From Methanotrichaceae archaeon (lineage in GTDB: Archaea > Halobacteriota > Methanosarcinia > Methanotrichales > Methanotrichaceae): a DNA stretch of 30,155 bases. Under the pieces are notes generated by a model. The model was not told the DNA's origin, ran no database searches, and saw nothing but the letters and a program-made list of their open reading frames with translations. Positions 3,200 through 28,839 of this stretch are shown piece after piece. The stretch lies in assembly GCA_963803145.1 (NCBI GenBank), contig CAWDLW010000022.1:1-30155 (forward strand). The letters run 5' to 3'. A program made the translations under genes and the position numbers. The number at the start of each line of letters is the position of its first letter. Position 1 is the first letter of the stretch.

Positions 3200-4864
3200 A
3201 TGAAGAAGTCAGGTTTAATTTTTGTCTATTTAATAATAGTTGTAGCTGTATGTCTATCGGGATGCCTGCAGCGAGGGCCTTCTTCAAATAGCAGCTCTGT
3301 GACAGCTTCTCCTGCGACCACAAACCATACGTTCACGAATCCTGCCCCTATGAATATGAGTGCTGCAACAGGGCCCTCCTCAAATGTAGCGATCATCTAT
3401 CTTGCGGCCAAGAATATAGCCTTCAATGAGAGCACTATCACCGTTCCTGCAGGAGCAAACGTTACAGTATACTTCGATAATCAGGATTCAGGGACTCCAC
3501 ATAACTTTGCAGTTTATGATTCGCCTTCTGCATCACAAACGATCTTCCAGGGCAAAATAATCACAGGCCCAGCTAAGGCCACATATACATTCACTGCGCC
3601 ATCCAATCCTGGCACATACTACTTCCAGTGCGATGTTCACCCGACCCAGATGAAAGGCCAATTCATAGTACAGCCTTCGGGAGCCACATCTCAGGCGGGC
3701 ATATCCCAGTCAAACGTATCTGCCTCCCGGACTCAAAATGCAAGCGCTGCAACACAGGCCATACAACAGATGAAGATGTCGGCAAGCGTAAATATCAAGG
3801 ATTATGCCTACGACCCTAGTACAATTACCATTCCGGCTGGAACTTCAGTAACTTGGACAAACCTGGATACTGTTCCGCACACAGTAACAAGCACAAACGG
3901 CAAATTTGATTCGGGGATCTTGGGACAGGGCAGGATATTCAACTATACATTCAGCGATCCTGGGACCTATAATTACTACTGTACAATTCATCCCTATATG
4001 AAGGGCCAGGTTGTTGTGACACCTTATGGCGGACTTTACCCCCAGAGTGAGATTCCAACAGCAGTGCCTATATCGACAACTTCACCTCAGCCGTCCACAA
4101 GAATAACAATAGATCTTTTGGCTAAGAATATAAATTTTGATAAGGACAATATCACAGTTATCGCCGGGGCACAGGTAAATATTAATTTCTTCAACCTCGA
4201 TGTCGGCATGCCTCACAACTTCGCCGTATATGCAAATTCAGGAGCCGATACTGTTATCTATCAGGGACCTGTGATCATAGGACCGAAGCAGATAACATAC
4301 ACATTTAACGCACCCGTAGATCCTGGCATCTATTTCTTCAGATGCGATGTCCATCCTAAAGTAATGACCGGCAATTTCTATGTCGTATCCAAGGATAATC
4401 TTGTGTACCTTACGCCTGGGACAGCTTCCCAGATGCAGCCCGCGAATTCTGTACCTGGCCAGGGAACATCGACTGCAGGCCAGAATGTAACAGCGACGGG
4501 ATCTGGACCTCAAAGCGTTACCGTAGATTTAACTGCGGAAAATATAGCCTTTGATATGAATACAATCACAGCTCCTGCCGGTGCCAGGGTTATTATAAAT
4601 TTCAATAACAAGGACAGCGGCGTCCCTCATAACCTTGCTGTATATACGGATTCTTCTGCAACTACAGCCATCTTCAAAGGCAATATCATCACTGGCCCCG
4701 CCGAGACAACATATACCTTTACAGCACCTTCCCAGGCTGGAACCTACTTCTTCAGGTGCGATATACATCCGACACAAATGACTGGACAGTTCGTAGTAGA
4801 GTCAGCAGGAATCACACAAACGACGAATGTAATGGCCGCGAACATGTCTGGAATGAATATGTGA
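3200..4864 (+). CDS. Lipoprotein with four tandem type-1 copper (cupredoxin) domains
   Basis: Signal peptide with lipobox-like VCLSGC. Four sites: PHN...CDVHPTQM, PHT...CTIHPYM, PHN...CDVHPKVM and PHN...CDIHPTQM. Ser/Thr/Pro linkers with many N-x-S/T sequons and a Met-rich C-terminus. Confidence 0.9.
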   Translation: MKKSGLIFVYLIIVVAVCLSGCLQRGPSSNSSSVTASPATTNHTFTNPAPMNMSAATGPSSNVAIIYLAAKNIAFNESTITVPAGANVTVYFDNQDSGTPHNFAVYDSPSASQTIFQGKIITGPAKATYTFTAPSNPGTYYFQCDVHPTQMKGQFIVQPSGATSQAGISQSNVSASRTQNASAATQAIQQMKMSASVNIKDYAYDPSTITIPAGTSVTWTNLDTVPHTVTSTNGKFDSGILGQGRIFNYTFSDPGTYNYYCTIHPYMKGQVVVTPYGGLYPQSEIPTAVPISTTSPQPSTRITIDLLAKNINFDKDNITVIAGAQVNINFFNLDVGMPHNFAVYANSGADTVIYQGPVIIGPKQITYTFNAPVDPGIYFFRCDVHPKVMTGNFYVVSKDNLVYLTPGTASQMQPANSVPGQGTSTAGQNVTATGSGPQSVTVDLTAENIAFDMNTITAPAGARVIINFNNKDSGVPHNLAVYTDSSATTAIFKGNIITGPAETTYTFTAPSQAGTYFFRCDIHPTQMTGQFVVESAGITQTTNVMAANMSGMNM

Positions 4865-4951
4865 AAGAATATGTGAAAGGCTAACGCTTCAATAGCGAGC
4901 ATATTCAAAGCGAGCTAAAATACTTCCTCTTATTCGAACTGGCGCAAGAAA

Positions 4952-5031
4952 ATAGTAATAGTAAATTAGTAGTGATAGTAAATTAATTAAGGTTGTAAAA
5001 CAATATTGAATTACTTTGAGGAGTTGATGAA
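4952..5031 (+). promoter_or_regulatory. Conserved upstream cassette, copy 1 (TAGTAAATTAATTAAGG...TTACTT..GAGGAGTTGATGA)
   Basis: Aligns with the regions upstream of 7221 and 8194. TATA-like TTAATTAA plus RBS. Confidence 0.6.
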
Positions 5032-6621
5032 TTGATTAAAAATCCTTCGATTAAAGCATTGGCGCCTTTGGTCATGCTGGCCATAATCGTTATGCCTGCA
5101 TATGCTGCAGCTGTTGGCGTCCCTCCAGAGGTTACCAATTATTCCAAAGACTGGCCCCTGCCGAACCATGATTATGGAAACACAAGGGCTTCAACAAATT
5201 CTACTATTAACTCAGGGAACGTTAATTCTCTTGGTGTTGCCTGGTCAATGCCGATTGTTGGCATATCAGCTTATGGCGGCGCTGCGAGCACACCATTAAT
5301 TCTGGGGAGTACAATCTACTTCCAGGACCTGAAGAGCAATGTCTATTCCCTTGACCTTAAGACAGGCAAGGTGGATTGGGTTCAGATGCTCAACGATACC
5401 AACTACGGTCCGAATGGTCCGGCTGTCGGATGGGGCAAGGTGTTCATAAACCGGGGTCACTTTAACCTTTCTGCCCTTGATATCAAGTCCGGCAAAGTGC
5501 TTTGGACAACGAGGCTCTCCTATGTGAATACTACCGGCATTGATATCCAGCCCACGATCTATGACGGCATGGTTTATGCTTCGACTGTGCCTGGAACATC
5601 GGATCTGAACTGGTACACTGCTGGTGGTATAGGCATGATTTATGCGCTGGACCAAGATACAGGCAAGGTAAAATGGAATTTCAGTACAGTGGACTCGCCT
5701 AATCTTTGGGGCCATCCAGAGATCAACAGTGGCGGAGGATGCTGGTACACTCCTGCCATTGACTTAAATACGGGCATAATTTATTGGGGCATTGCCAATC
5801 CGGCTCCATTCCCCGGCACCAAAGAATATCCCAATGGAAGCAGCCGCCCGGGTCCCGACCTGTACACTGACAGCATGATGGCTCTGAATCACAGCACTGG
5901 GAGCATGAAGTGGTTTAACCAGGTCTATCCCCATGATCTCTATGATTTCGATCTGCAGATCGCACCAGTTCTTGCCAGTGGAAATGTAAGCGGAAAGCAG
6001 CAGGATATAGTCATCGGCGCTGGCAAGATGGGCAAAGTCTTTGGCTTCAATCGTGAGTCTGGAGCACTGCTATGGTCAACAGCGGTCGGAGAGCATAATG
6101 AAAACGATTCGCTTGACAGGCTCCCCGAAGGGATAACAAGAACAATGCCTGCCGTTACCGGTGGCGTAGAGACGCCCATGGCATATGCAGATGGAATCAT
6201 ATATGTGCCTGTGATCGATAAGTTTGCCGATTGGACTCCTTCCGGCTTCATATCATCAACTTTCAGCTTCAGCACTGGAAGAGGCGGCCTCTGGGCAGTC
6301 AATACCAGCACAGGAAAGGTCCTGTGGTACAAGAAGTTCAATTCGATTGACGTCGGAGGAGCGACTGTTGTCGGTGATCTCGTGTTCACCGCTACATATG
6401 ACGGAACCATTTACGCATTCAAGCGAGATACCGGCGATAATTTATGGACGTATAAAGCACCGGCAGGAATCAATGGTTGGCCTGCAGTCTCAGGCGATAC
6501 AATAATCTGGCCCTGTGGTGTTGGTGGGATGCCATCCTTGATTGCGTTCAGATTGGGGATGCCTAGGCGTATCTTCTCAGTCCATGATGTCAACTGCAAA
6601 AACCAATGTTTCAATGGATAA
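5032..6621 (+). CDS. Secreted PQQ-binding beta-propeller dehydrogenase-like protein (quinoprotein family); C-terminus probably frameshifted
   Basis: Signal peptide, DWPLPNHDYGNTR start, repeated A(L/F)DxxTGKxxW Trp-docking motifs, GGGCW, YWGIANP, DLYTDS, HDLYDFD and GAGKMG. Confidence 0.85.
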   Translation: MIKNPSIKALAPLVMLAIIVMPAYAAAVGVPPEVTNYSKDWPLPNHDYGNTRASTNSTINSGNVNSLGVAWSMPIVGISAYGGAASTPLILGSTIYFQDLKSNVYSLDLKTGKVDWVQMLNDTNYGPNGPAVGWGKVFINRGHFNLSALDIKSGKVLWTTRLSYVNTTGIDIQPTIYDGMVYASTVPGTSDLNWYTAGGIGMIYALDQDTGKVKWNFSTVDSPNLWGHPEINSGGGCWYTPAIDLNTGIIYWGIANPAPFPGTKEYPNGSSRPGPDLYTDSMMALNHSTGSMKWFNQVYPHDLYDFDLQIAPVLASGNVSGKQQDIVIGAGKMGKVFGFNRESGALLWSTAVGEHNENDSLDRLPEGITRTMPAVTGGVETPMAYADGIIYVPVIDKFADWTPSGFISSTFSFSTGRGGLWAVNTSTGKVLWYKKFNSIDVGGATVVGDLVFTATYDGTIYAFKRDTGDNLWTYKAPAGINGWPAVSGDTIIWPCGVGGMPSLIAFRLGMPRRIFSVHDVNCKNQCFNG

Positions 6622-7009
6622 ATCCGCATCCCAGAATCGAACTGTTGCGACTTCTGTGTCATCATCCAAAGCTTCGACCAATCTATCAAACTTAATGCCG
6701 ACAGGTCAGAGTTCGAAGAATGTGGTTATAAACCTGACTGCAAAGAATATTGCTTTTGATAAGAATAGCATCACAGTGCCTGCAGGAGCGCATATCAAAG
6801 TGAACTTCGATAACCAGGATAACGGAATCCAGCATAACATCGCCTTCTATACAGATGCCTCTGCCTCAAAGCTCATCTATGTTGGAGCGATTATTACAGG
6901 CCCTAAGGAGATCACCTATGCCTTTGATGCACCGACCACACCCGGGACGTACTTCTTCAGATGCGATGTTCATCCAACGGTCATGACAGGCCAGTTTGTT
7001 GTGGAGTAA
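6566..7009 (+). CDS. Ser/Thr linker plus cupredoxin domain; probably the +1-frame C-terminal part of the 5032 quinoprotein
   Basis: No signal peptide. AKNIAF...QHN...CDVHPTVM is intact. It overlaps the 5032 ORF end. Deleting one base near 6565 gives IAFRLGMP-GVSSQSMM... Confidence 0.75.
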   Translation, partial: GVSSQSMMSTAKTNVSMDKSASQNRTVATSVSSSKASTNLSNLMPTGQSSKNVVINLTAKNIAFDKNSITVPAGAHIKVNFDNQDNGIQHNIAFYTDASASKLIYVGAIITGPKEITYAFDAPTTPGTYFFRCDVHPTVMTGQFVVE

Positions 7010-7220: not shown

Positions 7221-7988
7221 ATGATAAACGAGATCAAAAAGCTTGGTTTGATAATACTATCTCTAGTAATGCTGGCGGTCCTAACCTTGCCTGCATGTAC
7301 AGCACAGACGAGTACAAGTGGTATGCCAACGATAATGATAACTTCGCCAAAAGAGGGAGCAACGATTCCTGCAGGCAATGTCACAATAATGGTCAATGTC
7401 ACGAACTTTAAGCTGGTGAATAAGCTTGGCCAGGCAAATGTTGCTGGCGAGGGCCACGTCCATTACTACATTGATGTCGCAGTTCCAAAGACACCTGGCA
7501 AGCCTGCAACTACGGCCGTAGGCACATTTGCTCCCACACTTAATACAACCTGGATCTGGCCAAATGTTATGCCCGGCAAACATAACTTCTCAGTCCAGCT
7601 TGCGAACAATGACCATACTCCTTTGATTCCGCTGGTCTATAATACAGTCAATGTTACAGTCGTGGCCAATACAACCTTGAAGACGATGGCGGTACAGAAT
7701 ATTGCTATAGGTCTCATAGCCAAGAATATAGCTTTTAACACTTCCACGATCACTGTTCCTGCTGGAGCCAACATCACTGTGAACTTCGATAACCAGGATA
7801 CATACGTACCTCACAACTTCGCCGTCTATACTGATTCATCCGCTACAAAGACCATATTCCAAGGGAAGCAAATTACCGGCCCAGCTAAAACATCATATAC
7901 ATTCACAGCGCCTTCCCAGGCTGGGACCTACTTCTTCAGATGCGATGTTCATCCAACGCAAATGACTGGCCAGTTTATAGTGCAGTGA
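7221..7988 (+). CDS. Secreted protein: His-rich Ig-like (DUF4399-like) domain plus C-terminal cupredoxin
   Basis: Signal peptide, ITSPKEGATI, GHVHYYID...PGKHNFSVQLANNDH, then PHN...CDVHPTQM. GGAGG RBS. Confidence 0.85.
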   Translation: MINEIKKLGLIILSLVMLAVLTLPACTAQTSTSGMPTIMITSPKEGATIPAGNVTIMVNVTNFKLVNKLGQANVAGEGHVHYYIDVAVPKTPGKPATTAVGTFAPTLNTTWIWPNVMPGKHNFSVQLANNDHTPLIPLVYNTVNVTVVANTTLKTMAVQNIAIGLIAKNIAFNTSTITVPAGANITVNFDNQDTYVPHNFAVYTDSSATKTIFQGKQITGPAKTSYTFTAPSQAGTYFFRCDVHPTQMTGQFIVQ

Positions 7989-8121: not shown

Positions 8122-8193
8122 TAGTAAATTAATTAAAGGAGTAATGCGATATACTAATTGCTCTACGGAGCTACTTCTAAGGAGTTGTTGAGA
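8122..8193 (+). promoter_or_regulatory. Conserved upstream cassette, copy 3, with palindrome GAGTA-N15-TGCTC (8139-8163)
   Basis: TAGTAAATTAATTAAAGGAGTA...TGCTC...CTACTTCTAAGGAGTTGTTGAGA-TTG. Confidence 0.6.
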
Positions 8194-8748
8194 TTGATAA
8201 AAAGTAAAATAGGCTTGATATTGCTGTCCCTAGTGGTATTAGCAATATTTATAATGCCAACATTTGCGCAGGCAAATAATAGTACCAATATGGGAATGAG
8301 CACTGGCAACATTGGTGCCAATACAGGATCCAACAATGTAGTCGTAAACATTATGGCAAAGAATATTGCCTTTAACATGAGCACGATTACAGCGCCTGCT
8401 GGCGCTCAAGTTACTGTCAACTTCAATAATCAGGATTCCGGAATACAGCATAACATTGCCTTCTATACAGATTCCTCTGCCGCAACGACCATTTACAAAG
8501 GCCCGATAACCGCGGGATCAAACATGACCACGTTTACATTTACTGCGCCATCCACGCCAGGTACCTACTTCTTCAGATGCGACGTCCATCCAACTCAAAT
8601 GATCGGCCAGTTTGTGGTAACGCCCATTACAGGTTCCAATACTGGATCTAACACAGGATTAAATACTGGCAGCTCAGGCTCCTCTGGCTCAAGTTCCTCC
8701 GGTTATAGTTCCTCGAGTTCAGGTGGATCTTACGGCTCTGGTTATTAA
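8194..8748 (+). CDS. Secreted single-domain cupredoxin with Ser/Gly-rich tail
   Basis: TTG start at 8194 chosen by analogy with the 7221 upstream region. Signal peptide, QHN...CDVHPTQM, and a GSNT/SSG low-complexity C-terminus. Confidence 0.88.
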   Translation: MIKSKIGLILLSLVVLAIFIMPTFAQANNSTNMGMSTGNIGANTGSNNVVVNIMAKNIAFNMSTITAPAGAQVTVNFNNQDSGIQHNIAFYTDSSAATTIYKGPITAGSNMTTFTFTAPSTPGTYFFRCDVHPTQMIGQFVVTPITGSNTGSNTGLNTGSSGSSGSSSSGYSSSSSGGSYGSGY

Positions 8749-8964: not shown

Positions 8965-9837
8965 ATGTCTAGCAAAATTGGATTATCCATTTTGATCTTA
9001 GCTGTAATACTTTCAGCTACAGTTATCCTGGCGACTAGTCAGTCTACAACGAATAAATCCTTAGCCAACCAAACAGCTTCTAATCAATCAATGACTTCTA
9101 TAGGTGTGTCGACAAAGGCAGGCATAGGCCAGTATCTCGTAGATGGACGAGGCATGTCCCTCTACTATTTTGCAAATGATACTCCTGGATCGAGCACCTG
9201 TTTCACCACACCTTATAATGAAGGCGGCATCCTTCTTCAAACGGTTCCAAATGCGACCACATGTGCTACAGTCTGGCCAGCATTCGATGCCTCTGGAATC
9301 TCAGCGTCCTCTGGGCTAAATAAATCAGACATCACTACTATCAAAAGGGATAGCACTCATATGCAAACTGCACTTAGGGGCTGGCCACTTTATCTCTACC
9401 TGGGAGACAATGCACCAGGAGATACCGACGGCAATGGGGCATTAAAGGGTGAATGGGTGTTAGCCAGGCCTTTCGGCACGGTAAATGTAGCTAATAATCT
9501 CAAAGTTGGAGCTTACCTCACAGATGCCCGGGGAATGACGTTATACTATTACAAGAATGATCAAGGACACATCAAGAACACCTGCACCGACGATTGCGCC
9601 AATAAATGGCCTGCCTTCTATGCTGGGCCTGAGGATATAGCAAGCTCTAAATTGAGCCGCAGCGATTTCAATCACATAATCAAGGATGATAACTACCAGC
9701 AAACAACCTTCAGGGGGTGGCCATTGTACTATTACAGTGGCGATAAGAAGCCTGGAGATATTAATGGCCAGGGGATAGGAGGTGTCTGGTCAGTTGTCAG
9801 TTTGGGTGTCCAGCCAAATATTTTATCCAATCCTTAG
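8965..9837 (+). CDS. Secreted Y-x4-D repeat protein (Lipoprotein_15/COG4315-like), duplicated unit
   Basis: Signal peptide and two units of LxDxRGMxLYY...D...C...C...WP...Q...GWPLYxYxGDxxPGDxxGxG...W. Confidence 0.85.
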   Translation: MSSKIGLSILILAVILSATVILATSQSTTNKSLANQTASNQSMTSIGVSTKAGIGQYLVDGRGMSLYYFANDTPGSSTCFTTPYNEGGILLQTVPNATTCATVWPAFDASGISASSGLNKSDITTIKRDSTHMQTALRGWPLYLYLGDNAPGDTDGNGALKGEWVLARPFGTVNVANNLKVGAYLTDARGMTLYYYKNDQGHIKNTCTDDCANKWPAFYAGPEDIASSKLSRSDFNHIIKDDNYQQTTFRGWPLYYYSGDKKPGDINGQGIGGVWSVVSLGVQPNILSNP

Positions 9838-10371: not shown

Positions 10372-10710
10372 TCATTCTAACCCTCGGAATCCCGGCTCAT
10401 TAATCTTATTGAAGTTCTTTATAATAGTCGAGGCATCCTCCTTACTTATTTGCATCTGCATCATCTTGGAGACAACGCAGCGCAGCATTTTCTTCTCATC
10501 CTTGACCGCCTGGCCATCCTCCGATTTATCATCAAGGCCGAAGTTCTTAAAGAGATACTCCGTATTTTTTTCATCCCAGCTGGTATGGGCTACCAAGCCC
10601 CACTTCTGAAACATGGCTGCTGCATGATCAAGCAGATGCTGATCAAAGCGCTCTGGAATCTGGCATCCCTGTAACTGCTTCATGAACTCATCTTTCTTCA
10701 AAATTTTCAC
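10372..10710 (-). CDS. Hypothetical protein (112 aa)
   Basis: Open frame with a GTG start and soluble, charged composition. No family recognised. Confidence 0.6.
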   Translation of the reverse strand: MKILKKDEFMKQLQGCQIPERFDQHLLDHAAAMFQKWGLVAHTSWDEKNTEYLFKNFGLDDKSEDGQAVKDEKKMLRCVVSKMMQMQISKEDASTIIKNFNKINEPGFRGLE

Positions 10711-12291: not shown

Positions 12292-12780
12292 ATGTCAGCC
12301 TATATTAAATTAATAATAGCCTTGTTATCTTTGCTGACGATGACAGCCTTTGCGCAATATGCATACCCCATGCAAGGAGCTACCCCAACTCCAATGTCGA
12401 CATCGCAGACATACACTATAATGACAGCCAATAACTCATCGGTGGGTACTTATCTAACAGATAGTCGTGGCATGACACTATACCATCTTACGACCGATGA
12501 GGGGAAGAATATGAGCACCTGCACTAGCGCCGGCTGCAAAGGGTCTTGGCCGCTATTCTACAATGCGAGCCTAAAGGTTCCTCCAAACCTGAATTCCAGA
12601 GACTTCGGAAACATAACAACCAATGGGAACAAACAGACTACCTATAAAGGATGGCCTCTGTATTATTTCACAGGGGATAAAAAGAATGGAGATATCAATG
12701 GCCAGGGCAAAGGAGGAGTTTGGTCCGTAGTAGATCCTAATAGCCCCAACACATTCCCAACAAGCTTCTCATACAAATAA
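12292..12780 (+). CDS. Secreted Y-x4-D repeat protein (Lipoprotein_15/COG4315-like), single unit
   Basis: GGTGA RBS, signal peptide, LTDSRGMTLY, CTSAGCKGSWP and GWPLYYFTGDKKNGDINGQG. Paralog of 8965. Confidence 0.87.
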   Translation: MSAYIKLIIALLSLLTMTAFAQYAYPMQGATPTPMSTSQTYTIMTANNSSVGTYLTDSRGMTLYHLTTDEGKNMSTCTSAGCKGSWPLFYNASLKVPPNLNSRDFGNITTNGNKQTTYKGWPLYYFTGDKKNGDINGQGKGGVWSVVDPNSPNTFPTSFSYK

Positions 12781-12792
12781 TAGGCGAAACGA

Positions 12793-17238: not shown

Positions 17239-17292
17239 TATGTTCAAATCTAATAATTGACATTGAATAATCTTTCCGATAGAGGATGCAAT

Positions 17293-19993: not shown

Positions 19994-20041
19994 AAATTAA
20001 ATATAGAAAGTCGGCATAGCTCCAAATAATTGGGAGGGAAT

Positions 20042-21003: not shown

Positions 21004-21495
21004 TTGATAATCAATAGAGAACTATGGATAATTAAATCGGATCATCAGAAATTGCTGGACGGCATTGCCCAGCTCGAGAAGAATGCCGATGGCTCCAGAG
21101 AAGATAAATTCAATGCCGTGATGAAGGATAATCTGGATCATATGAGGGCCGAAGAGGATGTATTTTATCTTGCGATTAATCAGCAGGCTCCGGAGGCTAT
21201 GATGAAATCCATTGAGGCGCACAACATCGCCAGAATCTCAATGGATGATCTCTCATTAACGCCAAAGGATGATCCATGGTGGGTAGCTAAGCTGCAGGTC
21301 TTCAGGGACATATCTTTAAGCCATATCCGGGAGGAAGAAGGCCCTATATTTGATATCGCCAAAAGCATTATAGACAACGCTGAGCTTCAAGAGATGGGCC
21401 TGAGATTCCAGCATGCAAAAGGAGCCAGTACACTGCATCAACCCACGTCAGAAGCATCAATAGGCAGCGGCAGGTGGAGTGGTTTTAGCACCTAA
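21004..21495 (+). CDS. Hemerythrin/HHE cation-binding domain protein
   Basis: IKSDH, HMRAEEDVFY, EAHN and HIREEEGPIF di-iron motifs. Start codon uncertain. Confidence 0.85.
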   Translation: MIINRELWIIKSDHQKLLDGIAQLEKNADGSREDKFNAVMKDNLDHMRAEEDVFYLAINQQAPEAMMKSIEAHNIARISMDDLSLTPKDDPWWVAKLQVFRDISLSHIREEEGPIFDIAKSIIDNAELQEMGLRFQHAKGASTLHQPTSEASIGSGRWSGFST

Positions 21496-21523
21496 AATAC
21501 ATGCCCTAAAATACAGGCAAATA

Positions 21524-21550
21524 AAGTCCCCGGAAATTTGCCGGGGACTT
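21524..21550. terminator. Perfect 10-bp GC-rich inverted repeat
   Basis: AAGTCCCCGG-AAATTTG-CCGGGGACTT between the hemerythrin and cupredoxin genes. Confidence 0.55.
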
Positions 21551-21615
21551 CCCGCTCCGTCCTCTCCACTCCGGCGAGTTAAATTTAATACTATAGAGTA
21601 TAGAAATATTTAGAG

Positions 21616-22356
21616 GTGGTTGGATTGAACGGATTCTTCAAGATCCTCCTTCTTTTGGCATTGATTCTAGGATTATCGACTTGTACGCAGGCAAGCGCAC
21701 CTTCGAGCCAGGGATTGCCTCCAGGCAAGCTGATAGATATAAAGAATGGTACGTTCAACCCAGACAACCTTACAGTCCCCCTTAATACGACTGTTACATG
21801 GGCCAACCACGATATGAACCCCATTGATGTAGTTGCTGACGATAGCTCATTCGACTCTGGAGAGATTTACCCCAATGGTTACGAGTATGATTACATCTTC
21901 CTGCAGCCCGGAGCGTACAGGTATCATTCTAAAGAGAAACCATCCATGCAGGGGCAGGTAATTGTTGCCAATGCAAACGGCACTCTGCCCAAGGTTACTG
22001 AGCTGCCTGCGTCTACTGCGCTGGCCAACAAGACCGCTCAAGCCAATAAAACAACTCAGACACAAAAGATAACCATAGGACTTGTGGCCAAGAACATAGC
22101 CTTCAACACCAGCAAGATCACTGTGCCCGCTGATGCTCAGGTAACTATCAACTTCAATAATCAGGACAGCGGCGTGCCCCATAACTTTGCAGTCTATCAA
22201 TCATCCGCAGCCACAAACGCTATATTCAAGGGGCAGATAGTGACCGGCCCCGCTAAGACCACATATACATTCACCGCTCCAGGCAAGCCGGGCACATACT
22301 ATTTCCAGTGCGATGTCCACCCAACTCAGATGAATGGTCAGTTTATGGTACAATAG
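21616..22356 (+). CDS. Secreted two-domain cupredoxin (domain 1 lacks Cu ligands, domain 2 intact)
   Basis: Signal peptide. Domain 1 is a plastocyanin-like fold ending YRYHSKEKPSMQG. Domain 2 is PHN...CDVHPTQM. Start is GTG 21616 or TTG 21625. Confidence 0.87.
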   Translation: MVGLNGFFKILLLLALILGLSTCTQASAPSSQGLPPGKLIDIKNGTFNPDNLTVPLNTTVTWANHDMNPIDVVADDSSFDSGEIYPNGYEYDYIFLQPGAYRYHSKEKPSMQGQVIVANANGTLPKVTELPASTALANKTAQANKTTQTQKITIGLVAKNIAFNTSKITVPADAQVTINFNNQDSGVPHNFAVYQSSAATNAIFKGQIVTGPAKTTYTFTAPGKPGTYYFQCDVHPTQMNGQFMVQ

Positions 22357-22520
22357 ACTCTAAAATTCTAAACCTGAGAATTCTGAATGAATCGTCCTTA
22401 GAATTTATTGAGTCCATTCATTTTTGGCATATTGGTTTGGTTAGAGGTTACCATAAAATTTATAATGACTTACTGCCCATAATATTGCTAATAGTAAATG
22501 GATTTTCGGGATATGAAACG

Positions 22521-24125
22521 GTGATCAAGCTTACAGTTCTGCTAGCTGCCTTTGCTGTCATGTTCTTGGTGTTAGTGCTCTACATAGTGCCGCAGCAGGG
22601 TGGGCTGATATCTTCTACGGAACTGCAAACATCTAACCTTCAAGGGGTACCCCCGCAGCTCGAAGAGAATGTGCCCATCCAGGAGGTAGATTTGGGCGGA
22701 CAGGGCAGGTCGATCTTCATCGCCGTTGCAATGCTTGGCCACATTCTCCTCGCCAATCTGCAGCTCGGAGGAGCATGGATCATTCCTCTCACCGAATACC
22801 TTTACCTCAGATCAGGAAAGAAGCGATTTAGGAGACTCGCCAGATCCCAGACGCTTTTCAACGTCATATTCTTCAGCGTAGGGGCTACATGGGCTCTCGG
22901 AGGAATGCTCTTCTTCGCAGGCCTCTTTCCGGTCTTTACCCAAAACATATTCCATATCTACTGGTGGCCTCTATTTATCGAGGCCCTTACCTTCGCAGGT
23001 GAAATATTCTTCCTTTACTCTTACTGGTACACATGGGATAGGATCAGTGATGGGTGGCATCAGTTCCTTGGCTGGGCTCTCGCTGTTGATGTTTTCCTGC
23101 AGATGTTGATGATAGATACCCTGGCAGCTGGCATGCTGACCACAGGGGACAGTACCATAGTATGGGGATATTCGGGAATCCTCACAATGGCATGGAACAC
23201 ACTCATAGCCTGGTGGAGCAACTCAACCGTCTGGTTCCTCACATTCCACAGGCTGGCTGGAGCGGTATCTGTCTATGGTTACATAATAGCTGCACTGGCC
23301 ATGTTCCATTATCTGGATAGAAAGGATCAAGCCTCCAGGGCTTATTGGGACTGGGTAGCCACATACGGCATGGCCTTTGGGCTGCTGGGCCTCGCGTTTC
23401 AGCCCGGGTTCGGGCTCATGTACATGACGCAAATAAATCTCAACCAACCAGCGGCGTTCAACTACATGATGCACGGCCCGAGGGCCTGGGAGATGCTATG
23501 GATGGTAGTGCTTCTCTCAACGCTGCTCATAGTCTCGCTTATATACTTCATAGATCGCCATAAAGGGACACTCTCTAAACAAAGGACTTTCAACATCTAC
23601 CCAATGTGGAAGATACTCCTAGCCTTTGCCGCCTTGGCTTGGTTCATCAACGCGAACCCTGCTTGGTTTGGGACACTCTTCGTAAATAGTCCGAGTGCAG
23701 TGGCCAACCCAGCTGGCGCAATGGTCTATAAGTACATAGCCCTATTTACAATAACAATAATAGCATCATTGGTCGTGGGATCTGCGGTTTTCATACTTGG
23801 GAGCCTCGATGAGCCTGATTGGGGACACATCTCCAAATCTTCCAGGGCGGCTGCCATCATTTCGGCCATCCTGGCTATGTGGGTAATCATAGTCATGGGA
23901 TTCGTGAGGGAATCGGCCAGATCCCCCTGGACTATCTTTCAGATTGTACCCGTGCCTGGAGGGACTGATTACCCGACGCCGATATCCGTATGGGCTATAT
24001 TCCTGATCTGGTTTGGCCTGCTAGGTTTCTCGATTACAGTGTTCTGGTTCGTCTCCAAAGTAACCGCAGAGCATCCTGAAGATGTCGATGTGCTTGAACC
24101 AGCCGCTCAAGCATGGAAGGATTGA
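22521..24125 (+). CDS. cydA: Cytochrome bd oxidase subunit I-like protein (CydA superfamily, non-quinol OR-N-like type), copy A
   Basis: GHILLAN (H19-equivalent), IEALTFAGE (E99/E107-equivalents), FHRL (H186), GAMVYK (candidate Met ligand) and GFVRESARSPW (E445/R448). Multiple TM helices. GTG start at 22521 chosen by alignment with copy B. Confidence 0.82.
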   Translation: MIKLTVLLAAFAVMFLVLVLYIVPQQGGLISSTELQTSNLQGVPPQLEENVPIQEVDLGGQGRSIFIAVAMLGHILLANLQLGGAWIIPLTEYLYLRSGKKRFRRLARSQTLFNVIFFSVGATWALGGMLFFAGLFPVFTQNIFHIYWWPLFIEALTFAGEIFFLYSYWYTWDRISDGWHQFLGWALAVDVFLQMLMIDTLAAGMLTTGDSTIVWGYSGILTMAWNTLIAWWSNSTVWFLTFHRLAGAVSVYGYIIAALAMFHYLDRKDQASRAYWDWVATYGMAFGLLGLAFQPGFGLMYMTQINLNQPAAFNYMMHGPRAWEMLWMVVLLSTLLIVSLIYFIDRHKGTLSKQRTFNIYPMWKILLAFAALAWFINANPAWFGTLFVNSPSAVANPAGAMVYKYIALFTITIIASLVVGSAVFILGSLDEPDWGHISKSSRAAAIISAILAMWVIIVMGFVRESARSPWTIFQIVPVPGGTDYPTPISVWAIFLIWFGLLGFSITVFWFVSKVTAEHPEDVDVLEPAAQAWKD

Positions 24126-24297
24126 GGTGTCACTCGATGTGCGATTCGAGATTGACATTTAATGAGGCGGAAGAATATACTGCGGATAGCAGCGCTAGAG
24201 ATGACATCTCTGTTCATAAGGGGTTTCACGCATTGTCAATCACTCCAAAGGATAGTGGTCTCATAATCAATGCTCATGTAGAGAGGGAATGGGCCAT

Positions 24298-25893
24298 ATG
24301 ATAAAGCTGGCAGCCTTAGTACTATTGCTGGTGGCCTTCTTCCTGATGCTGATCCTGTATATCGCTCCACAACAGGGAGCGTTTATATCTTCAACTGCCA
24401 TCAGTGCGGGCGATCTTGACGCGGTAAAACCGCCATTGCAAGAAAATCAGCTGCCCCTTCAAACTGTAGATTTGGGAAGCCAAGGAAGATCCATATTCAT
24501 GGCTATAACCCTAACAGGCCACATCCAACTGGCGAACCTAGCGCTGGGCGGGTCCTGGATAATTGTGATAACTGAGTTCCTTTTCCTGAGATCCAGAAGA
24601 GAGCGCTATAGAAATCTGGCCAAATCCATGGCCTTCTTCAGCGTTATACTATTCTCAGTCGGTGCTACCTTTGGTGCGTCAGCACTACTTTTCATTTACT
24701 CACTTTATCCTGTCTTCATGCTTAATATCTTTCATATCTATTGGTGGCCCATTTTCGCAACGCTTCTACTATGGAGCGCTCAAATTTTCTTCCTTTGGCT
24801 ATATTTCTACACATGGAAGAGCATGAGACCCTCATCGCACTTATTCATAGGCCTCGGTTATGCCATCGCATCCTTCTTCCAGGCTTTAATGATACAGATG
24901 ATGGGATCAGGAATGTTGACGCCTAATAATACTGAGATTACATGGGGCTACATTGGCGTTCTGACAATGGACTATAGAACACTACTCTCATGGTGGTTCA
25001 ACCCAACCCTATGGGCTCTCCAGTTCCACAGTCTGGCAGCGGCCATATCCTACTTCGGCTTCCTTATAGCCGTATTATCCATGTTCCACTATCAGGATAA
25101 GAAGGGCAGTCCAAATGCTCAGAAGTATTGGGACTGGTCGGGATCTTACGGCATGGCCTGGGGCCTGGCAGGACTCGCAGTTCAGCCCATCCTAGGTGTG
25201 TTCTTCATGAGGCAGATAATAGGTGCCAGTCCCACGGCCTTCCTGATGATAATGCATGGTCCTAGGGCCTGGGAGATGCTATGGATGGCGGCGCTGCTTT
25301 CAATCCTCATAATGACCTCAGTAGTTTATTTTATCGACCGCAGGGGGGCAATATTGGATCGGATCGAAACTAAGAACATAAGCCTTACACTTAAGGCCTT
25401 ACTGGCAGTTTCAGCGATCTCAGCCTTTATATTGGTAAACCCGGGTTGGCTTGGTGCCGCGTTCAGGGATGATCCCACAGCCTGGATCAATCCATTAGGC
25501 AAGATGATTTACAAATACATAGCCCTCGCCGTATTATCCGTAGTAAGCATTATCGTGGTCATAATAGATGTCTTTACTCTGGGCGTTGCCAAAGAGCAGG
25601 ATTGGGGCAACCTTCACAGGAGTTCTCGTATCTCCGGCATCTTCGCAGGGGTTCTAGGAATGTGGATTGTGATGACTATGGGGTTTGTCAGGGAATCGGC
25701 CAGAGCCCCTTGGACCATTTGGAAGATTATACCTGTGCCGGGAGGAATGAATGATCCTACACCAATATCTTTGGGAAGCATCTTCATAGTATGGGGGATA
25801 CTTCTTGCCTTCTTACTGGCGGTCTTCTGGTATGTGTCGAAGGTGACTGCAGAGGTAACTGTGAAGCACCACGAGGAACCAGAGGAGGAATAG
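24298..25893 (+). CDS. Second CydA-like paralog (CydA-prime-like), copy B
   Basis: Colinear with copy A: GHIQLAN, FHSL, GKMIYK and GFVRESARAPW. The two Glu positions read T and Q (FATLLLWSAQ). Confidence 0.82.
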   Translation: MIKLAALVLLLVAFFLMLILYIAPQQGAFISSTAISAGDLDAVKPPLQENQLPLQTVDLGSQGRSIFMAITLTGHIQLANLALGGSWIIVITEFLFLRSRRERYRNLAKSMAFFSVILFSVGATFGASALLFIYSLYPVFMLNIFHIYWWPIFATLLLWSAQIFFLWLYFYTWKSMRPSSHLFIGLGYAIASFFQALMIQMMGSGMLTPNNTEITWGYIGVLTMDYRTLLSWWFNPTLWALQFHSLAAAISYFGFLIAVLSMFHYQDKKGSPNAQKYWDWSGSYGMAWGLAGLAVQPILGVFFMRQIIGASPTAFLMIMHGPRAWEMLWMAALLSILIMTSVVYFIDRRGAILDRIETKNISLTLKALLAVSAISAFILVNPGWLGAAFRDDPTAWINPLGKMIYKYIALAVLSVVSIIVVIIDVFTLGVAKEQDWGNLHRSSRISGIFAGVLGMWIVMTMGFVRESARAPWTIWKIIPVPGGMNDPTPISLGSIFIVWGILLAFLLAVFWYVSKVTAEVTVKHHEEPEEE

Positions 25894-25950
25894 CTGTCCA
25901 GTTGCTATCAAACTAATGCTATAATATATTCGAGACGAAAGGAGATAAAG

Positions 25951-27225
25951 TTGTACAAGCAAATTTTTGTGGCTCTTGACGGATCAATACACTCTGATCT
26001 TGCTAAAGACGCAGCTCTTTCACTGGCGGAAAAAGGAAGCAGCGTTCATCTGATAGGCTGCCATGCTTATGCAGCCAGCCTTCATCGTACCCGGTTCGGC
26101 GATATGGAGCCAGGACTCCCTGAAGGCTATAGCGGTGAAGGTCTGGTTAACCTTAGGAGGACCCACGAAGGTCTAATAGGAGAGGGCTTGCAGCTAATAT
26201 CGGACTCCTACCTGGAGCCGCTTGTTAAAGGAGCTATTGATAAAGGAATTGAATATGAATGTGCAACTCCCGAGGGACGAAATTATATACAGATCCTCAG
26301 GGCTGCTGGAGAGCGAAAAGCAAATCTTCTCGTCATGGGTGCTCAAGGGCAGGGACGAGCTGAGGGCCTGGGAAGTACGGCCGAACGCGTTCTCCTTTAT
26401 TCTCAGGGAATGGATGTTTTACTGATGCGTAGTCCCTGGAGCTTTGCCGGCAAATCTATTCTCGTTGGCATAGATGGCAGCGTTGATAGCTATTATGCCA
26501 TGATGCGGGCTATAGAGATAGCTAAAGCCTTCAATGCCCAGATCGAAGCGGTTTCAGTCTACGATCCCTTCTTCCATTCGATGGTTTTTAAAAGAATATC
26601 GAAATCATTACCTGAGAAGGCTAAGGAGCATTTTGATTTATCAGCCCAAGAGAAGATTCACGACGATGTAATCGATGAAGGGTTGAAGAGGCTTTACAGC
26701 GACGGGCTGAAGAAGGGCATACGCCTGGCTGATGCTGAGGGTATAAAGGCCCGTGCAGAGGTGCTGGCAGGCAAGGTATGTGCCCAAATTCAGGATTTTG
26801 TCTCTAAGAAAGATATTTCTCTTATCGTTTTGGGTCGTTGGGGACTTCATAAGGAGCAGGAATCAATGATAGGTTCAAATGCTTTGAGGCTTGCCCGATC
26901 GAACCTCCCAAGCGTGCTGATTGTATCTACGGGGGCTTCTCCAGACAATCCAGACAGAATTTCGGGCCAAATTTCTGCAGCAGAGGACGGTGGTGCTTTG
27001 GACATCAATTATGCAAAAAAAGGAGTTGAGCCGCTTGACGCCGAGGTGGTGGTAATGCATAAGACAAAAAGATTTGCTCCGGATTTTCACAGGCATATGC
27101 TTAGAGGCAAGATTCAAGGAAAGATAATCAATATAGGTGAAAGTATATTGATCTATACGGTCGATGAGACCGTTCCTGCCGGTCCTGTAAGAGTGACTGA
27201 ACGAACCAGGCTGGAGGTGCGCTGA
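25951..27225 (+). CDS. Tandem universal stress protein (2x USP) with extra C-terminal beta domain
   Basis: IFVALDGS, LLVMGAQG..GLGSTAERV, ILVGIDGS and LIVLGRWG..IGSNA. GGAG RBS and TTG start. Confidence 0.9.
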   Translation: MYKQIFVALDGSIHSDLAKDAALSLAEKGSSVHLIGCHAYAASLHRTRFGDMEPGLPEGYSGEGLVNLRRTHEGLIGEGLQLISDSYLEPLVKGAIDKGIEYECATPEGRNYIQILRAAGERKANLLVMGAQGQGRAEGLGSTAERVLLYSQGMDVLLMRSPWSFAGKSILVGIDGSVDSYYAMMRAIEIAKAFNAQIEAVSVYDPFFHSMVFKRISKSLPEKAKEHFDLSAQEKIHDDVIDEGLKRLYSDGLKKGIRLADAEGIKARAEVLAGKVCAQIQDFVSKKDISLIVLGRWGLHKEQESMIGSNALRLARSNLPSVLIVSTGASPDNPDRISGQISAAEDGGALDINYAKKGVEPLDAEVVVMHKTKRFAPDFHRHMLRGKIQGKIINIGESILIYTVDETVPAGPVRVTERTRLEVR

Positions 27226-27227
27226 GA

Positions 27228-28151
27228 TTGCAGATCCTATCCCTGCAGGGCATCTCAAAATCTTATGGTAAAAATAGAGTCCTCGATGGCATAGACCTTG
27301 AAGTCTATAAAGGAGAGATATTTGTCCTCCTGGGATCCAATGGCTGTGGAAAATCAACGCTTCTACGGATAATGGCGACTTTGCTCAAGCCTGATTCAGG
27401 TGAAGCATTGCTCTTCGGCTTGAAAAGCAGTCCAGAAATCCTGAAGCATGTTGGGATCATGTTCGACCATACAGCCCACTGGGATAAGCTCACTGGATAC
27501 GAGAATGCCTGGATGTTTGCCCGATCTTACGGCCTTCCCAATAATGTGGCGGCTTCAAGGCTTGATAGCCTCTTCAAATGGATAGGACTTTCTGAAAGAC
27601 GCGATGAAGCTGTTACAGCCTATTCCTACGGCATGAGGCGCAAGCTGTCGCTTATAGAGGCACTTGTACATGAGCCCGATCTGCTTCTGATGGATGAGCC
27701 CTCAATGGGACTGGATTATACATCCCGTTTGGCTATTTATTCTCGTCTTCGGCAGCTGGCAGAGAAGGGCATAGCAATAATATTGTCTACCAACGATGTA
27801 AGCGAGGCCGAGCTCCTGGCCAGCAGAGTCGCCCTCCTAAAAAATGGGCATATTATTGCCCTAGATCAACCTGAGAATCTGGTGTCATCGCTCAATGCTC
27901 TGACCAGGATCGAACTGAAGCTGGCTGTGCCCATATCCATAGAATCCATAAGAGGAATCAGAGGAATAGTGAAGGTAGAAGCGAATGGTGATGAGTTAAG
28001 GATACTTGCGGCCTCAAATCATGATTCACTATCGTCAGTAGTGAAAGAGGTAACAACGCTTGGGGGAGTGATTCAGAAGATCGAGGTAAAGGAGCCCAAT
28101 CTTGGAGATGCATTCCTGAAGTTTGCCGGGGAGGACATCGATGCTGCCTAA
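27228..28151 (+). CDS. ABC-2-type transporter ATP-binding subunit
   Basis: Walker A GSNGCGKST, signature YSYGM, Walker B LLMDEP and C-terminal PNLGDAFL. Confidence 0.93.
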   Translation: MQILSLQGISKSYGKNRVLDGIDLEVYKGEIFVLLGSNGCGKSTLLRIMATLLKPDSGEALLFGLKSSPEILKHVGIMFDHTAHWDKLTGYENAWMFARSYGLPNNVAASRLDSLFKWIGLSERRDEAVTAYSYGMRRKLSLIEALVHEPDLLLMDEPSMGLDYTSRLAIYSRLRQLAEKGIAIILSTNDVSEAELLASRVALLKNGHIIALDQPENLVSSLNALTRIELKLAVPISIESIRGIRGIVKVEANGDELRILAASNHDSLSSVVKEVTTLGGVIQKIEVKEPNLGDAFLKFAGEDIDAA

Positions 28152-28839
28152 CGCTCTATGGCAGGAGGAGATTATTGAGGAGTGCAAGAGCAGAAGATCT
28201 CTTATGACAAAGCTATTGCTTCCTATGATCCTTGTAGGCCCATTGGCCTTGGCCTGGGTTCCACCTGCTATGAGGTCCGGCGGCATGGCGCTGGCAGTGA
28301 TATTTATCGGCATCTTCGGATCATCCATCGGCATTGTAGGTCTGAGAGATTCAAAGATGCTGGAAAGACTGGCTGTGCTCCCGCTTCGTCCTGCAGTCGT
28401 TGTATCCAACTATATTCTGGGAAGATCCATATTTATGGGCGTTCAGCTGGCCCTGCCTCTTGCCTTAATATTATTCGTAGGCCAGTCCCGATCGGTTTCT
28501 ATGAGTTCTATATCGTGGGTCATTCTTTGCTATGTAGCCGCACTGGTATCCGCCAGTGCCCTTGGAACAGTTGTGGCACTTATTTCTCGCTCATCCGGAG
28601 AAGTACACCTGTATGCATTCTTGGCAGTTATTGCAGTTGCCGGCCTTTCCGGCATCCTCCCAGGAACTGGTTCAATTGTCTTGGCCAGGGCTATCTCACC
28701 TTTCTGGCAGCTATCGAATACACTGCTATTTTCGTGGGGTGCATCGGACCTGTATATGCCTGCTGCCGCGCTAATTTCGGGCGCTGTAATTCTCCTAATA
28801 GCCCTGCTCATATCTCCAAGGCTATTCCAGCTAGGTTGA
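28141..28839 (+). CDS. ABC-2-type transporter permease
   Basis: About 6 TM segments and RDSKMLERLAVLPLRP. ATG 28141 overlaps the ATPase end and has a GGAGG RBS. Confidence 0.85.
   Translation: MLPNALWQEEIIEECKSRRSLMTKLLLPMILVGPLALAWVPPAMRSGGMALAVIFIGIFGSSIGIVGLRDSKMLERLAVLPLRPAVVVSNYILGRSIFMGVQLALPLALILFVGQSRSVSMSSISWVILCYVAALVSASALGTVVALISRSSGEVHLYAFLAVIAVAGLSGILPGTGSIVLARAISPFWQLSNTLLFSWGASDLYMPAAALISGAVILLIALLISPRLFQLG

Follow-up and report, generated by a model that had tools for sequence, protein, structure and literature searches.

A conserved cluster of cupredoxin, quinoprotein-type propeller and CydA-like genes in methanogens as a candidate surface electron chain

Background

Active methanogens occur in oxygenated soils and where oxic and anoxic zones meet, and their way of dealing with O2 is an open question. 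A stretch of DNA from a Methanotrichaceae archaeon (GenBank assembly GCA_963803145.1, contig CAWDLW010000022.1, positions 1 to 30,155; the whole 30,155 nucleotides are called the window below) raises the question whether such organisms carry, on the outer face of the membrane, an electron chain that is free of cytochrome c and ends in an oxygen reductase. Genes for two propellers of the pyrroloquinoline quinone (PQQ) dehydrogenase type and for several cupredoxins lie in the window together with a pair of genes, a and b, for proteins resembling CydA of bd-type oxidases (CydA-like genes). We found that the three families are linked in a conserved cluster in methanogens, and that propeller and cupredoxin domains are fused to each other in some of these clusters. 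Our preferred reading, held tentatively and at somewhat less than an even chance, is that the window encodes a methanogen-specific form of a non-quinol bd-type oxidase module, in which a copper relay would carry electrons from the propellers for the reduction of O2. The domain identities, the conserved ligand residues, the gene linkage and the fusions that we observed are reported first.

Parts of this picture were already known. Non-quinol branches of the bd superfamily with a/b duplicates and 'alternative electron donors' are outlined in the preprint of Murali, Gennis and Hemp (bioRxiv 10.1101/2021.01.16.426971), which in that outline presents them as uncharacterised and as thought to use cytochrome c. 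Johnson et al. 2021 report that bd homologues are prevalent in methanogens, and Holmes et al. 2018 (PMC6315138) name cupredoxin, PQQ-domain and bd-type oxidase genes together as candidate surface electron carriers of Methanosarcina barkeri. A preliminary description of the window, made from the sequence alone, had stated that no description of this combination was known; in view of these two reports the statement was too strong. What is new here is the conserved linkage of cupredoxin, propeller and CydA-like genes in methanogens and the propeller-cupredoxin fusions. No description of the conserved cluster or of the fusions was found in the literature, as judged from titles, abstracts and passages.

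If the preferred reading is true, a conserved module common to many methanogens would be a concrete candidate for the removal of O2 at the cell surface, and its cupredoxins would be the first donor other than cytochrome c assigned to the uncharacterised non-quinol bd branch.

CydA-like proteins without a Q-loop

For the first CydA-like gene, GTG 22521 is a likelier start codon than 22308. A profile of 16 homologues matched solved CydA structures in two regions, the first four to six helices and the last ones (5doq_A of G. thermodenitrificans, 7.6e-16; 6rko_A of E. coli, 1.1e-10). When the AlphaFold2 (AF2) model of subunit a was used as a Foldseek query (predicted local distance difference test, pLDDT, 86; predicted template modelling score, pTM, 0.89), the ten best matches were CydA chains only, at 12-18% identity and with a query-normalised TM-score (TMq) of 0.47-0.53. 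The model has 12 long helices, with the N- and C-termini facing inward as judged from the K/R distribution. The Q-loop, which lies between helices VI and VII, was absent from the model, and the hidden Markov model (HMM) matches to solved CydA skip this region. At the position of the E. coli Q-loop, the model of subunit a has an outer loop of 13 residues, one of them an invariant Met, and then two additional helices.

In subunit a, the equivalents of E. coli H19, E99, E107, H126, H186 and E445 are all kept, and the E445-x-x-R-x-P-W motif of E. coli CydA has a counterpart in the CydA-like proteins. The passage of the Murali preprint on these residues describes H19 as a ligand, E99 and E107 together with H126 as the proton channel, and H186 and M393 as the ligands of haem b558. 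By this residue comparison, subunit a would retain all that the di-haem site and the proton channel are known to require. Subunit b keeps the equivalents of H19, H126, H186 and E445 and has Thr in place of E99 and Gln in place of E107. In the HMM alignment, the column equivalent to Met393 holds a non-conserved Leu, and two invariant residues, Met317 and Met401, lie nearby on the outer face.

A scan for relatives of the CydA-like protein, with one genome taken per species, gave 52 loci (numbered with the prefix L). We compared 55 CydA-like open reading frames (ORFs) from 46 of these loci and the window, 54 of them full-length and one cut short. The equivalents of H19, H126, H186 and E445 were kept in 54 of 54 full-length ORFs, and the short ORF had a gap at E445. 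The profile alignment and the AF2 model bear out the earlier view of a CydA-like pair without the residues of the quinol Q-loop.

Among the tandem pairs, the first copy keeps E99 and E107 and the second loses both. At these two positions the second copy has Thr or Asn together with Gln in Methanotrichaceae, whereas that of Methanoculleus has Tyr together with Ile or Val. In a midpoint-rooted FastTree phylogeny of the 55 sequences, the a and b copies were sisters within each lineage; the two copies of the window are ~50% identical to each other. Since the copies of each lineage are sisters, the tree indicates at least two independent origins, one in Methanotrichaceae and one in Methanoculleus (L009, L017, L020, L024, L033), both of the tandem duplication and of the loss of the proton-channel glutamates from the second copy.

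Cyt_bd_oxida_II, the family of CydB, was matched by none of the 27 window ORFs, and the gene adjoining the first CydA-like gene is the second one. Both CydA-like proteins contain no Cys, and thus no haem c motif. The family is compact: among 1.84 billion cluster representatives there were three full-length sequences of at least 39% identity, and then a gap to ~24-34%. C-terminal cytochrome c domains were present in three of the 27 distant relatives (~24-34% identity) scanned, which would therefore take electrons from a periplasmic carrier domain, and a fused cupredoxin was present in none of the 27. A second Pfam domain was found in none of the best 120 near-length CydA-like homologues, and the search returned no longer, fused forms of the CydA-like protein, which is weak evidence.

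Linkage of cupredoxin and propeller genes to CydA-like genes

As the preliminary description had noted, a cupredoxin gene (21616-22356) lies directly upstream of the CydA-like pair of the window. It ends 164 nt 5' of the pair, and L001 and L022, both from Methanotrichaceae, have orthologues of it at the corresponding place. Linkage was evaluated by translating all ORFs of the 52 loci, searching them with the window proteins and counting the neighbours, so that co-occurrence is meant at the level of the locus. There were 31 loci of methanogen lineages, of which 18 were informative (at least 3 kb on both sides), and 14 informative loci of other lineages (Asgard, unclassified archaeal and bacterial).

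A cupredoxin gene was located within 6 kb of a CydA-like gene in 15 of the 18 informative methanogen-lineage loci, and within 1.5 kb in 11 of them; a propeller gene was located within 6 kb in 11 of 18. A same-strand cupredoxin gene directly 5' (<=360 nt) was present in 14 of all 31 methanogen-lineage loci, in addition to the window. Around the CydA-like block of these 31 loci, the density of cupredoxin ORFs was 0.237/kb at 0-1.5 kb compared to 0.024/kb at 6-10 kb, and that of propeller ORFs was 0.10/kb compared to 0/kb. Chance co-location of the three families was rejected because of this density gradient and of the fusions described below. Co-occurrence of the three families, which had been put forward for checking, was seen at locus level in Methanotrichaceae, Methanomicrobiales and Methanomassiliicoccales/Thermoplasmatales.

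The most constant neighbour of CydA-like genes in all lineages was the gene for a tandem universal stress protein (USP), which was found within 6 kb in 14 of the 18 methanogen-lineage and 13 of the 14 other informative loci. A gene of the ATP-binding cassette (ABC) type was near the CydA-like gene in 14 of the 18 methanogen-lineage loci.

An ORF of ~230 aa (e.g. L019:11662-12348) was observed in 18 loci, from Asgard, unclassified archaea, Anaerolineae, Christensenella and one member of Methanomassiliicoccales. Its product, which the window does not encode, matched no Pfam family and gave weak PNPOx-like signals; where cupredoxins are missing, this protein may be an alternative partner.

Fusion of propellers with cupredoxins

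An in-frame propeller-DUF4399-cupredoxin protein of 897 aa is encoded by L033:2554-5247. The same layout was found in L038, with a frame break inside the cupredoxin, and in L009 and L017 a stretch of N within a repetitive linker stands between the propeller and cupredoxin parts. When the 120 best homologues of the other propeller type, subfamily A (14012-15631), were examined, 10 also had cupredoxin Pfam domains.

In the window, the product of the other propeller gene (subfamily B, 5032-6621) is 56% identical to residues 97-597 of the L033 protein; the alignment stops at ...FRLG, and the last 20 codons of the gene are out of register. The product of the overlapping ORF 6542-7009 is 49% identical to the last 126 residues (772-897) of the same protein, and the frame changes at a run of four G (6555-6558). 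Judged from these alignments, 6542-7009 probably codes for the C-terminal domain of the propeller before it, put into another frame either by a sequencing error or by a real frameshift. The fusions support a tie between the propeller, as proposed donor, and the cupredoxin, as proposed wire.

Type-1 copper domains of the cupredoxins

Nine Cupredoxin_1 stretches were identified in five ORFs of the window (4+1+1+1+2), and PF13473 and PF00127 scored above cut-off in all five. The count agrees with the nine secreted domains described earlier, of which the one in 6542-7009 has no signal peptide of its own. The complete type-1 set (His...Cys-x2-His-x2-3-Met) is present in 8 of the 9 domains, which share the near-identical core PHNFA...YFFRCDVHPxxM (His, Cys-x2-His-x3-Met), the second domain of 3185-4864 having Cys-x2-His-x2-Met. 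The first domain of 21616-22356 has no Cys, and its second domain is a complete type-1 site. In 3185-4864 there are four copper loops, each with an upstream His, and the domains are joined by S/T/N-rich linkers. Cupredoxin arrays reach four domains in the window and six stretches in L003 and L006.

Lipobox-like signal ends were read from the sequence in three of the cupredoxin proteins (LSGC in 3185-4864, LPAC in 7221-7988, and LSTC), and long S/T/N/P-rich linkers follow the signal in all three. The cupredoxins encoded 5' of CydA-like genes in other methanogens have an AGC lipobox, a Thr/Pro linker of 30-100 residues and one copper domain.

The best solved matches of the copper domain of 21616-22356 were auracyanins of Chloroflexus/Roseiflexus, with auracyanin A (2aan, E 6.4e-7) the closest, followed by a related blue copper protein (6kol, 4e-6), and with 1ov8 at 0.023. 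Plastocyanin (6e-4) and amicyanin (~0.05) were further matches, and the scores for the equivalog models of amicyanin, plastocyanin and halocyanin were all under the cut-offs. Auracyanins are membrane-tethered type-1 copper carriers that substitute for cytochrome c. The window proteins differ from them in the copper loop (Cys-x2-His-x3-Met, x2 in one), in the multi-domain arrays and in the propeller fusions, and the partner of auracyanin is a haem-copper oxidase or a reaction centre, whereas that in the window is of the bd type.

A His-rich DUF4399-like domain with the motifs GEGHxHYY and NNDHTP is fused to cupredoxins and propellers (Table 1). No solved relative of this domain was found, and it might serve in metal binding or metal delivery.

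The cupredoxin arrays could also be thought to buffer or handle copper, with the CydA-like, USP, ABC and ABC-2 proteins forming a separate stress or transport system, e.g. for haem handling, and no electron chain at all. The fusion of the His-rich domains to cupredoxins and propellers fits this view, and so does the occurrence of the CydA-like, USP, ABC and ABC-2 core in all lineages, including those without cupredoxin; ABC-2 systems resemble the haem- or copper-centre assembly transporters CcmAB and NosFY. We nevertheless regard it as very improbable, for full His-Cys-His-Met type-1 sites are electron-transfer centres and not storage sites, and the propeller fusion and the tight same-strand adjacency to CydA-like genes across several orders are hard to square with copper buffering.

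Propellers of the PQQ dehydrogenase type

Two secreted quinoprotein-type propellers had been described in the window, and PF01011 was found in both. Subfamilies A and B are 25-29% identical. Their joint profile gave a full-length alignment to the type II quinohaemoprotein alcohol dehydrogenase (ADH) 1kv9 (E 4.5e-52), PedH and XoxF. The AF2 model of the subfamily A propeller had a pLDDT of 72 and a pTM of 0.79, with confidence lowest in the funnel loops. In a Foldseek search with this model, ranks 1-28 (one extra chain omitted) were all PQQ alcohol, methanol or sorbose dehydrogenases (E 1e-24 to 1e-29, TMq 0.63-0.72), and BamB (1e-19) was ten orders behind.

In the profile alignment of 16 propeller sequences, whose loops are low-confidence in the model, the PQQ-stacking Trp, the Asn metal ligand, the motif Asp-x-x-Asp-x-Asp (DTHDWD, HDLYDFD) and a Lys at the Arg331/Lys position are invariant. 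The Asp motif has the spacing of PHDEWDYD in XoxF, with the catalytic Asp followed two residues on by an extra Asp; the Asp at the last position of the motif corresponds to a residue described as essential for lanthanide coordination (PMC8546591).

The eight blades, the Trp, the Asn, the catalytic Asp, the Lys/Arg and the extra Asp are features in common with the PQQ alcohol and methanol dehydrogenases 1kv9, 1yiq, 1kb0, PedH and XoxF. Type II ADH has a built-in domain for electron exit and is reported to pass electrons to azurin. In the fused propellers studied here, the exit domain would be a cupredoxin and not a cytochrome c.

Other properties count against PQQ-dependent activity. The TIGR03075 scores of the two window propellers were 168.9 and 164.5 bits compared to a curated cut-off of 480, and both propellers scored about equally on the 'acido-empty-quinoprotein' model. 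The vicinal Cys-Cys, the electron exit in alcohol-oxidising quinoproteins, was absent in 18 of 18 propeller sequences, the subfamily A propeller having a single Cys. The position of the metal-binding Glu is Asp or variable. The window host is not known to make PQQ, and Holmes et al. 2018 (PMC6315138) found no genes for PQQ synthesis in M. barkeri. The preliminary identification as PQQ dehydrogenases fits the eight-bladed fold and the active-site Trp, Asn, Asp and Lys, and is at odds with the curated TIGR03075 score and the missing Cys-Cys.

It may be, then, that the link between cupredoxin and CydA-like proteins is real and that the propellers are cofactor-less scaffolds, binding modules or users of another cofactor. 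With another cofactor, they might collect electrons from a different source, e.g. sulfide, Fe(II), humic quinones or, following a suggestion of Holmes et al., methanophenazine. The scores far under the PQQ-ADH cut-off and near the 'empty quinoprotein' model, the missing Cys-Cys ring, the variable Glu position, the M. barkeri report and the 7 of 18 informative loci without a propeller within 6 kb all speak for this view. We consider it unlikely, although it deserves real weight, as the funnel Trp, Asn, Asp-x-x-Asp-x-Asp and Lys are invariant across subfamilies of such low identity, which would argue for retained catalysis, and as Foldseek placed PQQ dehydrogenases well before BamB. A surface enzyme could in principle also scavenge external PQQ. 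Methanoculleus clusters moreover contain the glucose/sorbosone dehydrogenase (GSDH) fold, a second fold known from PQQ enzymes, which likewise stands against propellers of a non-PQQ type.

In these Methanoculleus clusters, one to three GSDH-fold (PF07995) plus fasciclin proteins are encoded between cydA-b and the USP gene (Table 1).

Comparison with known bd-type systems

As far as the Murali preprint describes the OR-N and OR-C branches, they share with the window proteins the CydA fold, a di-haem site in the first four helices and the lack of a Q-loop. OR-N is further alike in its tandem a/b genes, in a b copy without E99/E107 and in an operon with alternative donors, and OR-C resembles the distant relatives of the window proteins in having a fused cytochrome c. 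In contrast to both branches, the donor genes of the window are for cupredoxins and not cytochromes c, and there is no CxxCH. Haem c motifs are reported in the CydA subunit of OR-C, whereas the window CydA-like proteins have none. The number of helices, compared by description, is 12 (predicted) in the window protein against 10 or 14 in OR-N and 8 in OR-C. OR-N is said there to have 'very few representatives in Archaea', whereas the hosts of the window family are methanogens.

The same preprint presents CydAA' (qOR4a/b) of Caldivirga maquilingensis as the only bd enzyme of two CydA proteins shown to reduce O2. It is like the window pair in having two CydA homologues, no CydB and an archaeal host, and an enzyme with haem b only is plausible here, as for CydAA'. 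The qOR4a subunit is described as keeping the quinol site, which the window proteins lack, and the window copies are recent duplicates (~50% identical).

The M. barkeri set of Holmes et al. (PMC6315138), as presented in the passage concerned, is a transcriptome list for direct interspecies electron transfer (DIET), with no cluster, fusions or synteny in it. Its proposed role is electron uptake, whereas that proposed here for the window module is O2 reduction. Expression in M. barkeri is reported to be higher during DIET for all three types of gene, those for cupredoxins, PQQ-domain proteins and the bd-type oxidase, and the cupredoxins of the clusters sit on long flexible linkers in the arrays described above, so that the module might be regarded as an extracellular electron conduit between the membrane and outside partners or minerals rather than as an oxygen reductase. 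This appears quite improbable to us. Holmes et al. themselves noted that cupredoxins and PQQ typically have potentials too positive for electrons to be passed on to methanophenazine, and the M. barkeri bd gene is annotated there as a nine-transmembrane (9-TM) quinol oxidase and was not placed in the CydA-like family of the window. Every a-type copy keeps the residues of the O2-reducing di-haem site and of the proton channel, and the oxygen-stress genes next to be described, for hemerythrin, desulfoferrodoxin and methionine sulfoxide reductase MsrA, also stand against a conduit.

Oxygen-stress and putative haem-synthesis genes near the module

A hemerythrin gene adjoins the CydA-like module in the window and in L023. 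The window hemerythrin (21004-21495) is a possible O2 or iron sensor, and its membership of the module is uncertain. A desulfoferrodoxin gene lies directly 3' of cydA-b in L022, and the gene for MsrA is near the CydA-like gene in L010 (Table 1).

Genes of the radical S-adenosylmethionine (SAM)/SPASM type were found near the module in 10 Methanomicrobiales loci and in one Methanotrichaceae locus. Their best NCBIfam matches were AhbC/NirJ1 and AhbD/NirJ2 at ~230-350 bits, compared to cut-offs of 500-650, and AhbA/B-like siroheme decarboxylase domains are encoded alongside them in L008 and L043. The identification as Ahb-like is tentative because the scores are under the curated cut-offs; such genes would be in keeping with a haem protein dependent on a dedicated supply of cofactor in organisms reported to lack AhbABCD.

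A much bolder extension of the preferred reading would be that many methanogens, including the 'cytochrome-free' Methanomicrobiales, have an outer-face chain free of cytochrome c, in which calcium- or lanthanide-dependent quinoprotein-cupredoxin fusions oxidise external alcohols or sugars and feed an electrogenic haem-only bd-type oxidase, with the adjacent haem-synthesis genes supplying the cofactor. Strictly anaerobic methanogens could then respire traces of O2 and gain energy thereby. We think this distinctly unlikely. The module as such raises the questions how haem, copper and possibly PQQ or lanthanides are used in organisms thought to be without them, and whether 'cytochrome-free' methanogens truly lack haem proteins.

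Proposed electron path and points against it

Under the preferred reading, the core of the module would be a haem-only CydA/CydA' pair, in which a keeps the proton-channel glutamates and b has lost them. Associated with this core in methanogens would be type-1 copper proteins resembling auracyanin, which would be lipid-anchored and have long flexible linkers, and surface propellers of the PQQ-ADH type that are frequently fused to the same cupredoxin domain. The propeller would oxidise an extracellular substrate, and the electrons would pass through fused or tethered cupredoxins to the outer-face haem of the CydA-like pair, where O2 (perhaps NO or H2O2) would be reduced with protons from the cytoplasm. 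The effect would be O2 scavenging at the surface without draining the low-potential reductants of the cell, and some membrane potential might be gained. The order PQQ, cupredoxins, O2 is thermodynamically downhill, the potentials quoted in a passage of PMC6315138 being ~+90-100 mV for PQQ and +150 to +680 mV for cupredoxins. We infer in this way the cofactors of the module (haem, copper and PQQ or another), the direction of the electrons, their acceptor and the physiological role.

Besides the properties of the propellers given above, several findings weigh against this path. The numbers of Asgard, unclassified archaeal and bacterial loci with a cupredoxin or a propeller were 0 of 14 and 0 of 14, and since none of these loci has a cupredoxin, cupredoxin is not an obligatory partner of CydA-like proteins. 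In the other lineages, the CydA-like gene is followed by the cytoplasmic ~230-aa ORF, before the USP gene. Even among the informative methanogen-lineage loci, a cupredoxin was missing from the 6 kb around the CydA-like gene in 3 of 18 and a propeller in 7 of 18. The constant neighbours USP, ABC and ABC-2 are given no role by the chain model. For the second ligand of haem b558 (the Met393 equivalent) there are two invariant outer-face Met candidates. In addition to the low Ahb-like scores, AhbABCD was found in 0 of 32 Methanomicrobiales according to the figures cited from Johnson et al. 2021. In the window itself, the two parts of the propeller-cupredoxin fusion stand in different frames, and the neighbourhood is interrupted by IS630-like elements. 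The chain of donor, wire and reductase that had been proposed is therefore plausible and partly supported by linkage, fusions and residues, and cannot be called complete, in view of the 14 other-lineage loci without cupredoxin and the unexplained USP, ABC and ABC-2 genes.

Host and gene map of the window

The window contains no universal marker genes, and the evidence on its lineage is synteny. Its gene order is syntenic with two contigs of Methanotrichaceae metagenome-assembled genomes (MAGs), L001 and L022. In L001, the best locus, the CydA-like protein is 78% identical and the order DUF488, propeller, cupredoxin, CydA-a, CydA-b, USP, ABC, ABC-2, Zn-ADH is that of the window. L022 has close copies of the inositol-phosphate synthase, of an adjoining 297-aa ORF, of the four-domain cupredoxin and of the CydA pair. 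The subfamily A propeller has a 93% identical homologue in a Methanotrichaceae record. Together, the synteny and this homologue support the earlier view of a probable methanogen, in that the host is a relative of methanogens.

Pfam was run on 27 window ORFs, and NCBIfam was also used for the domain calls (Table 1). The hemerythrin, tandem USP, SHOCT and ABC-2 proteins of the preliminary description were all found by Pfam. ORF 10372-10710(-) was ruled out as a SHOCT protein, having no Pfam match. The genes from hemerythrin through the ABC-2 permease (21004-28839) form a run on one strand. No CxxCH motif was present in any of the 22 window genes checked, as had been noted for the secreted proteins, and neither Rfam families nor tRNAs were found when the window was scanned for them.

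Table 1. Features of the window and, at the end, genes of related loci mentioned in the text
Feature	Position	Strand	Evidence or remark
Inositol-3-phosphate synthase	1846-2985	+	
Four-domain cupredoxin protein, lipoprotein-like, 559 aa	3185-4864	+	Cupredoxin_1 1e-44, 4 stretches; syntenic copy in L022
Secreted eight-bladed propeller, PQQ-alcohol-dehydrogenase type, subfamily B	5032-6621	+	PF01011
Cupredoxin ORF overlapping the end of the propeller gene in a different frame	6542-7009	+	Pfam
Lipoprotein-like protein, His-rich DUF4399-like domain plus one cupredoxin	7221-7988	+	DUF4399 25-26 bits, under the cut-off of 28
Secreted single cupredoxin, S/G-rich tail	8158-8748	+	Pfam, copper loop
Two secreted Lipoprotein_15 (PF03640) repeat proteins	8965-9837; 12292-12780	+	Pfam/NCBIfam
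Two IS630-like transposase pairs	11191-12188; 16165-17170	-	
SHOCT protein	13168-13422	-	28.9 bits, cut-off 27
Secreted eight-bladed propeller, PQQ-alcohol-dehydrogenase type, subfamily A	14012-15631	-	PF01011
Secreted Tyr/Pro/Gly-rich protein, 377 aa	17257-18390	+	Matches no family
DUF488	18498-18884	-	
Alpha/beta hydrolase	20030-20965	+	
Hemerythrin-domain protein	21004-21495	+	PF01814, 35 bits; 120 nt 5' of cupredoxin gene
Two-domain cupredoxin protein, lipoprotein-like	21616-22356	+	Directly 5' of CydA-like pair
CydA-like subunit a	22521-24125 (ORF 22308-24125)	+	Cyt_bd_oxida_I (PF01654) 63 bits, cut-off 26.2
CydA-like subunit b	24289-25893	+	Cyt_bd_oxida_I 71 bits, cut-off 26.2
Tandem universal stress protein	25951-27225	+	Two Usp stretches; C-terminal ~100 aa without family
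ABC transporter ATPase, DrrA/NodI-like	27228-28151	+	ABC_tran
ABC-2 type permease	28123-28839	+	ABC2_membrane; overlaps ATPase gene
Zn alcohol dehydrogenase	28862-29911	Opposite to the 21004-28839 run	
DUF4399-like domain fusions	Window 7221-7730; L023:10176-11396; L026:7228-9576; L033:2554-5247; L038:7716-9746		
Oxidative-stress neighbours (desulfoferrodoxin, methionine sulfoxide reductase, pyridine nucleotide-disulfide oxidoreductase)	L022:11740-12225; L010:5115-5714; L010:6773-8311; L025:8315-9793		
Radical-SAM/SPASM pairs	L008:1299-4463; L020:6033-9250; L033:5308-8937; L043:14499-17828; L018:2184-5459		
Radical-SAM/SPASM, continued	L023:14362-17637; L026:2393-5663; L003:107-1480; L031; L051; L017		
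GSDH-fold/fasciclin genes	L009:13393-15645; L020:13467-15719; L033:13515-20188; also L024, L031, L017, L016		

The two IS630-like elements (11188-12188 and 16171-17170) are in direct orientation, ~5 kb apart and ~80% identical, and in each the transposase is split between a pair of ORFs. Between the elements lie a Lipoprotein_15 gene, the gene for the SHOCT protein and that for the subfamily A propeller, and the gene order here is unlike that of the syntenic MAG L001. A recent composite transposon carrying this propeller was rejected because the two copies are just ~80% identical.

For the ATPase 27228-28151, the second-best NCBIfam match was TIGR03864 (ATPases of PQQ-alcohol-dehydrogenase clusters) with 159 bits, compared to a cut-off of 302; this probably reflects only a general likeness among ABC-2-type ATPases. 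Lipoprotein_15 repeat proteins are encoded along with the cupredoxin array in the window, and likewise in a related MAG (L022:13504-13992). The product of 17257-18390 consists of a Tyr/Pro/Gly-rich block followed by Thr/Gly/Gln-rich repeats.

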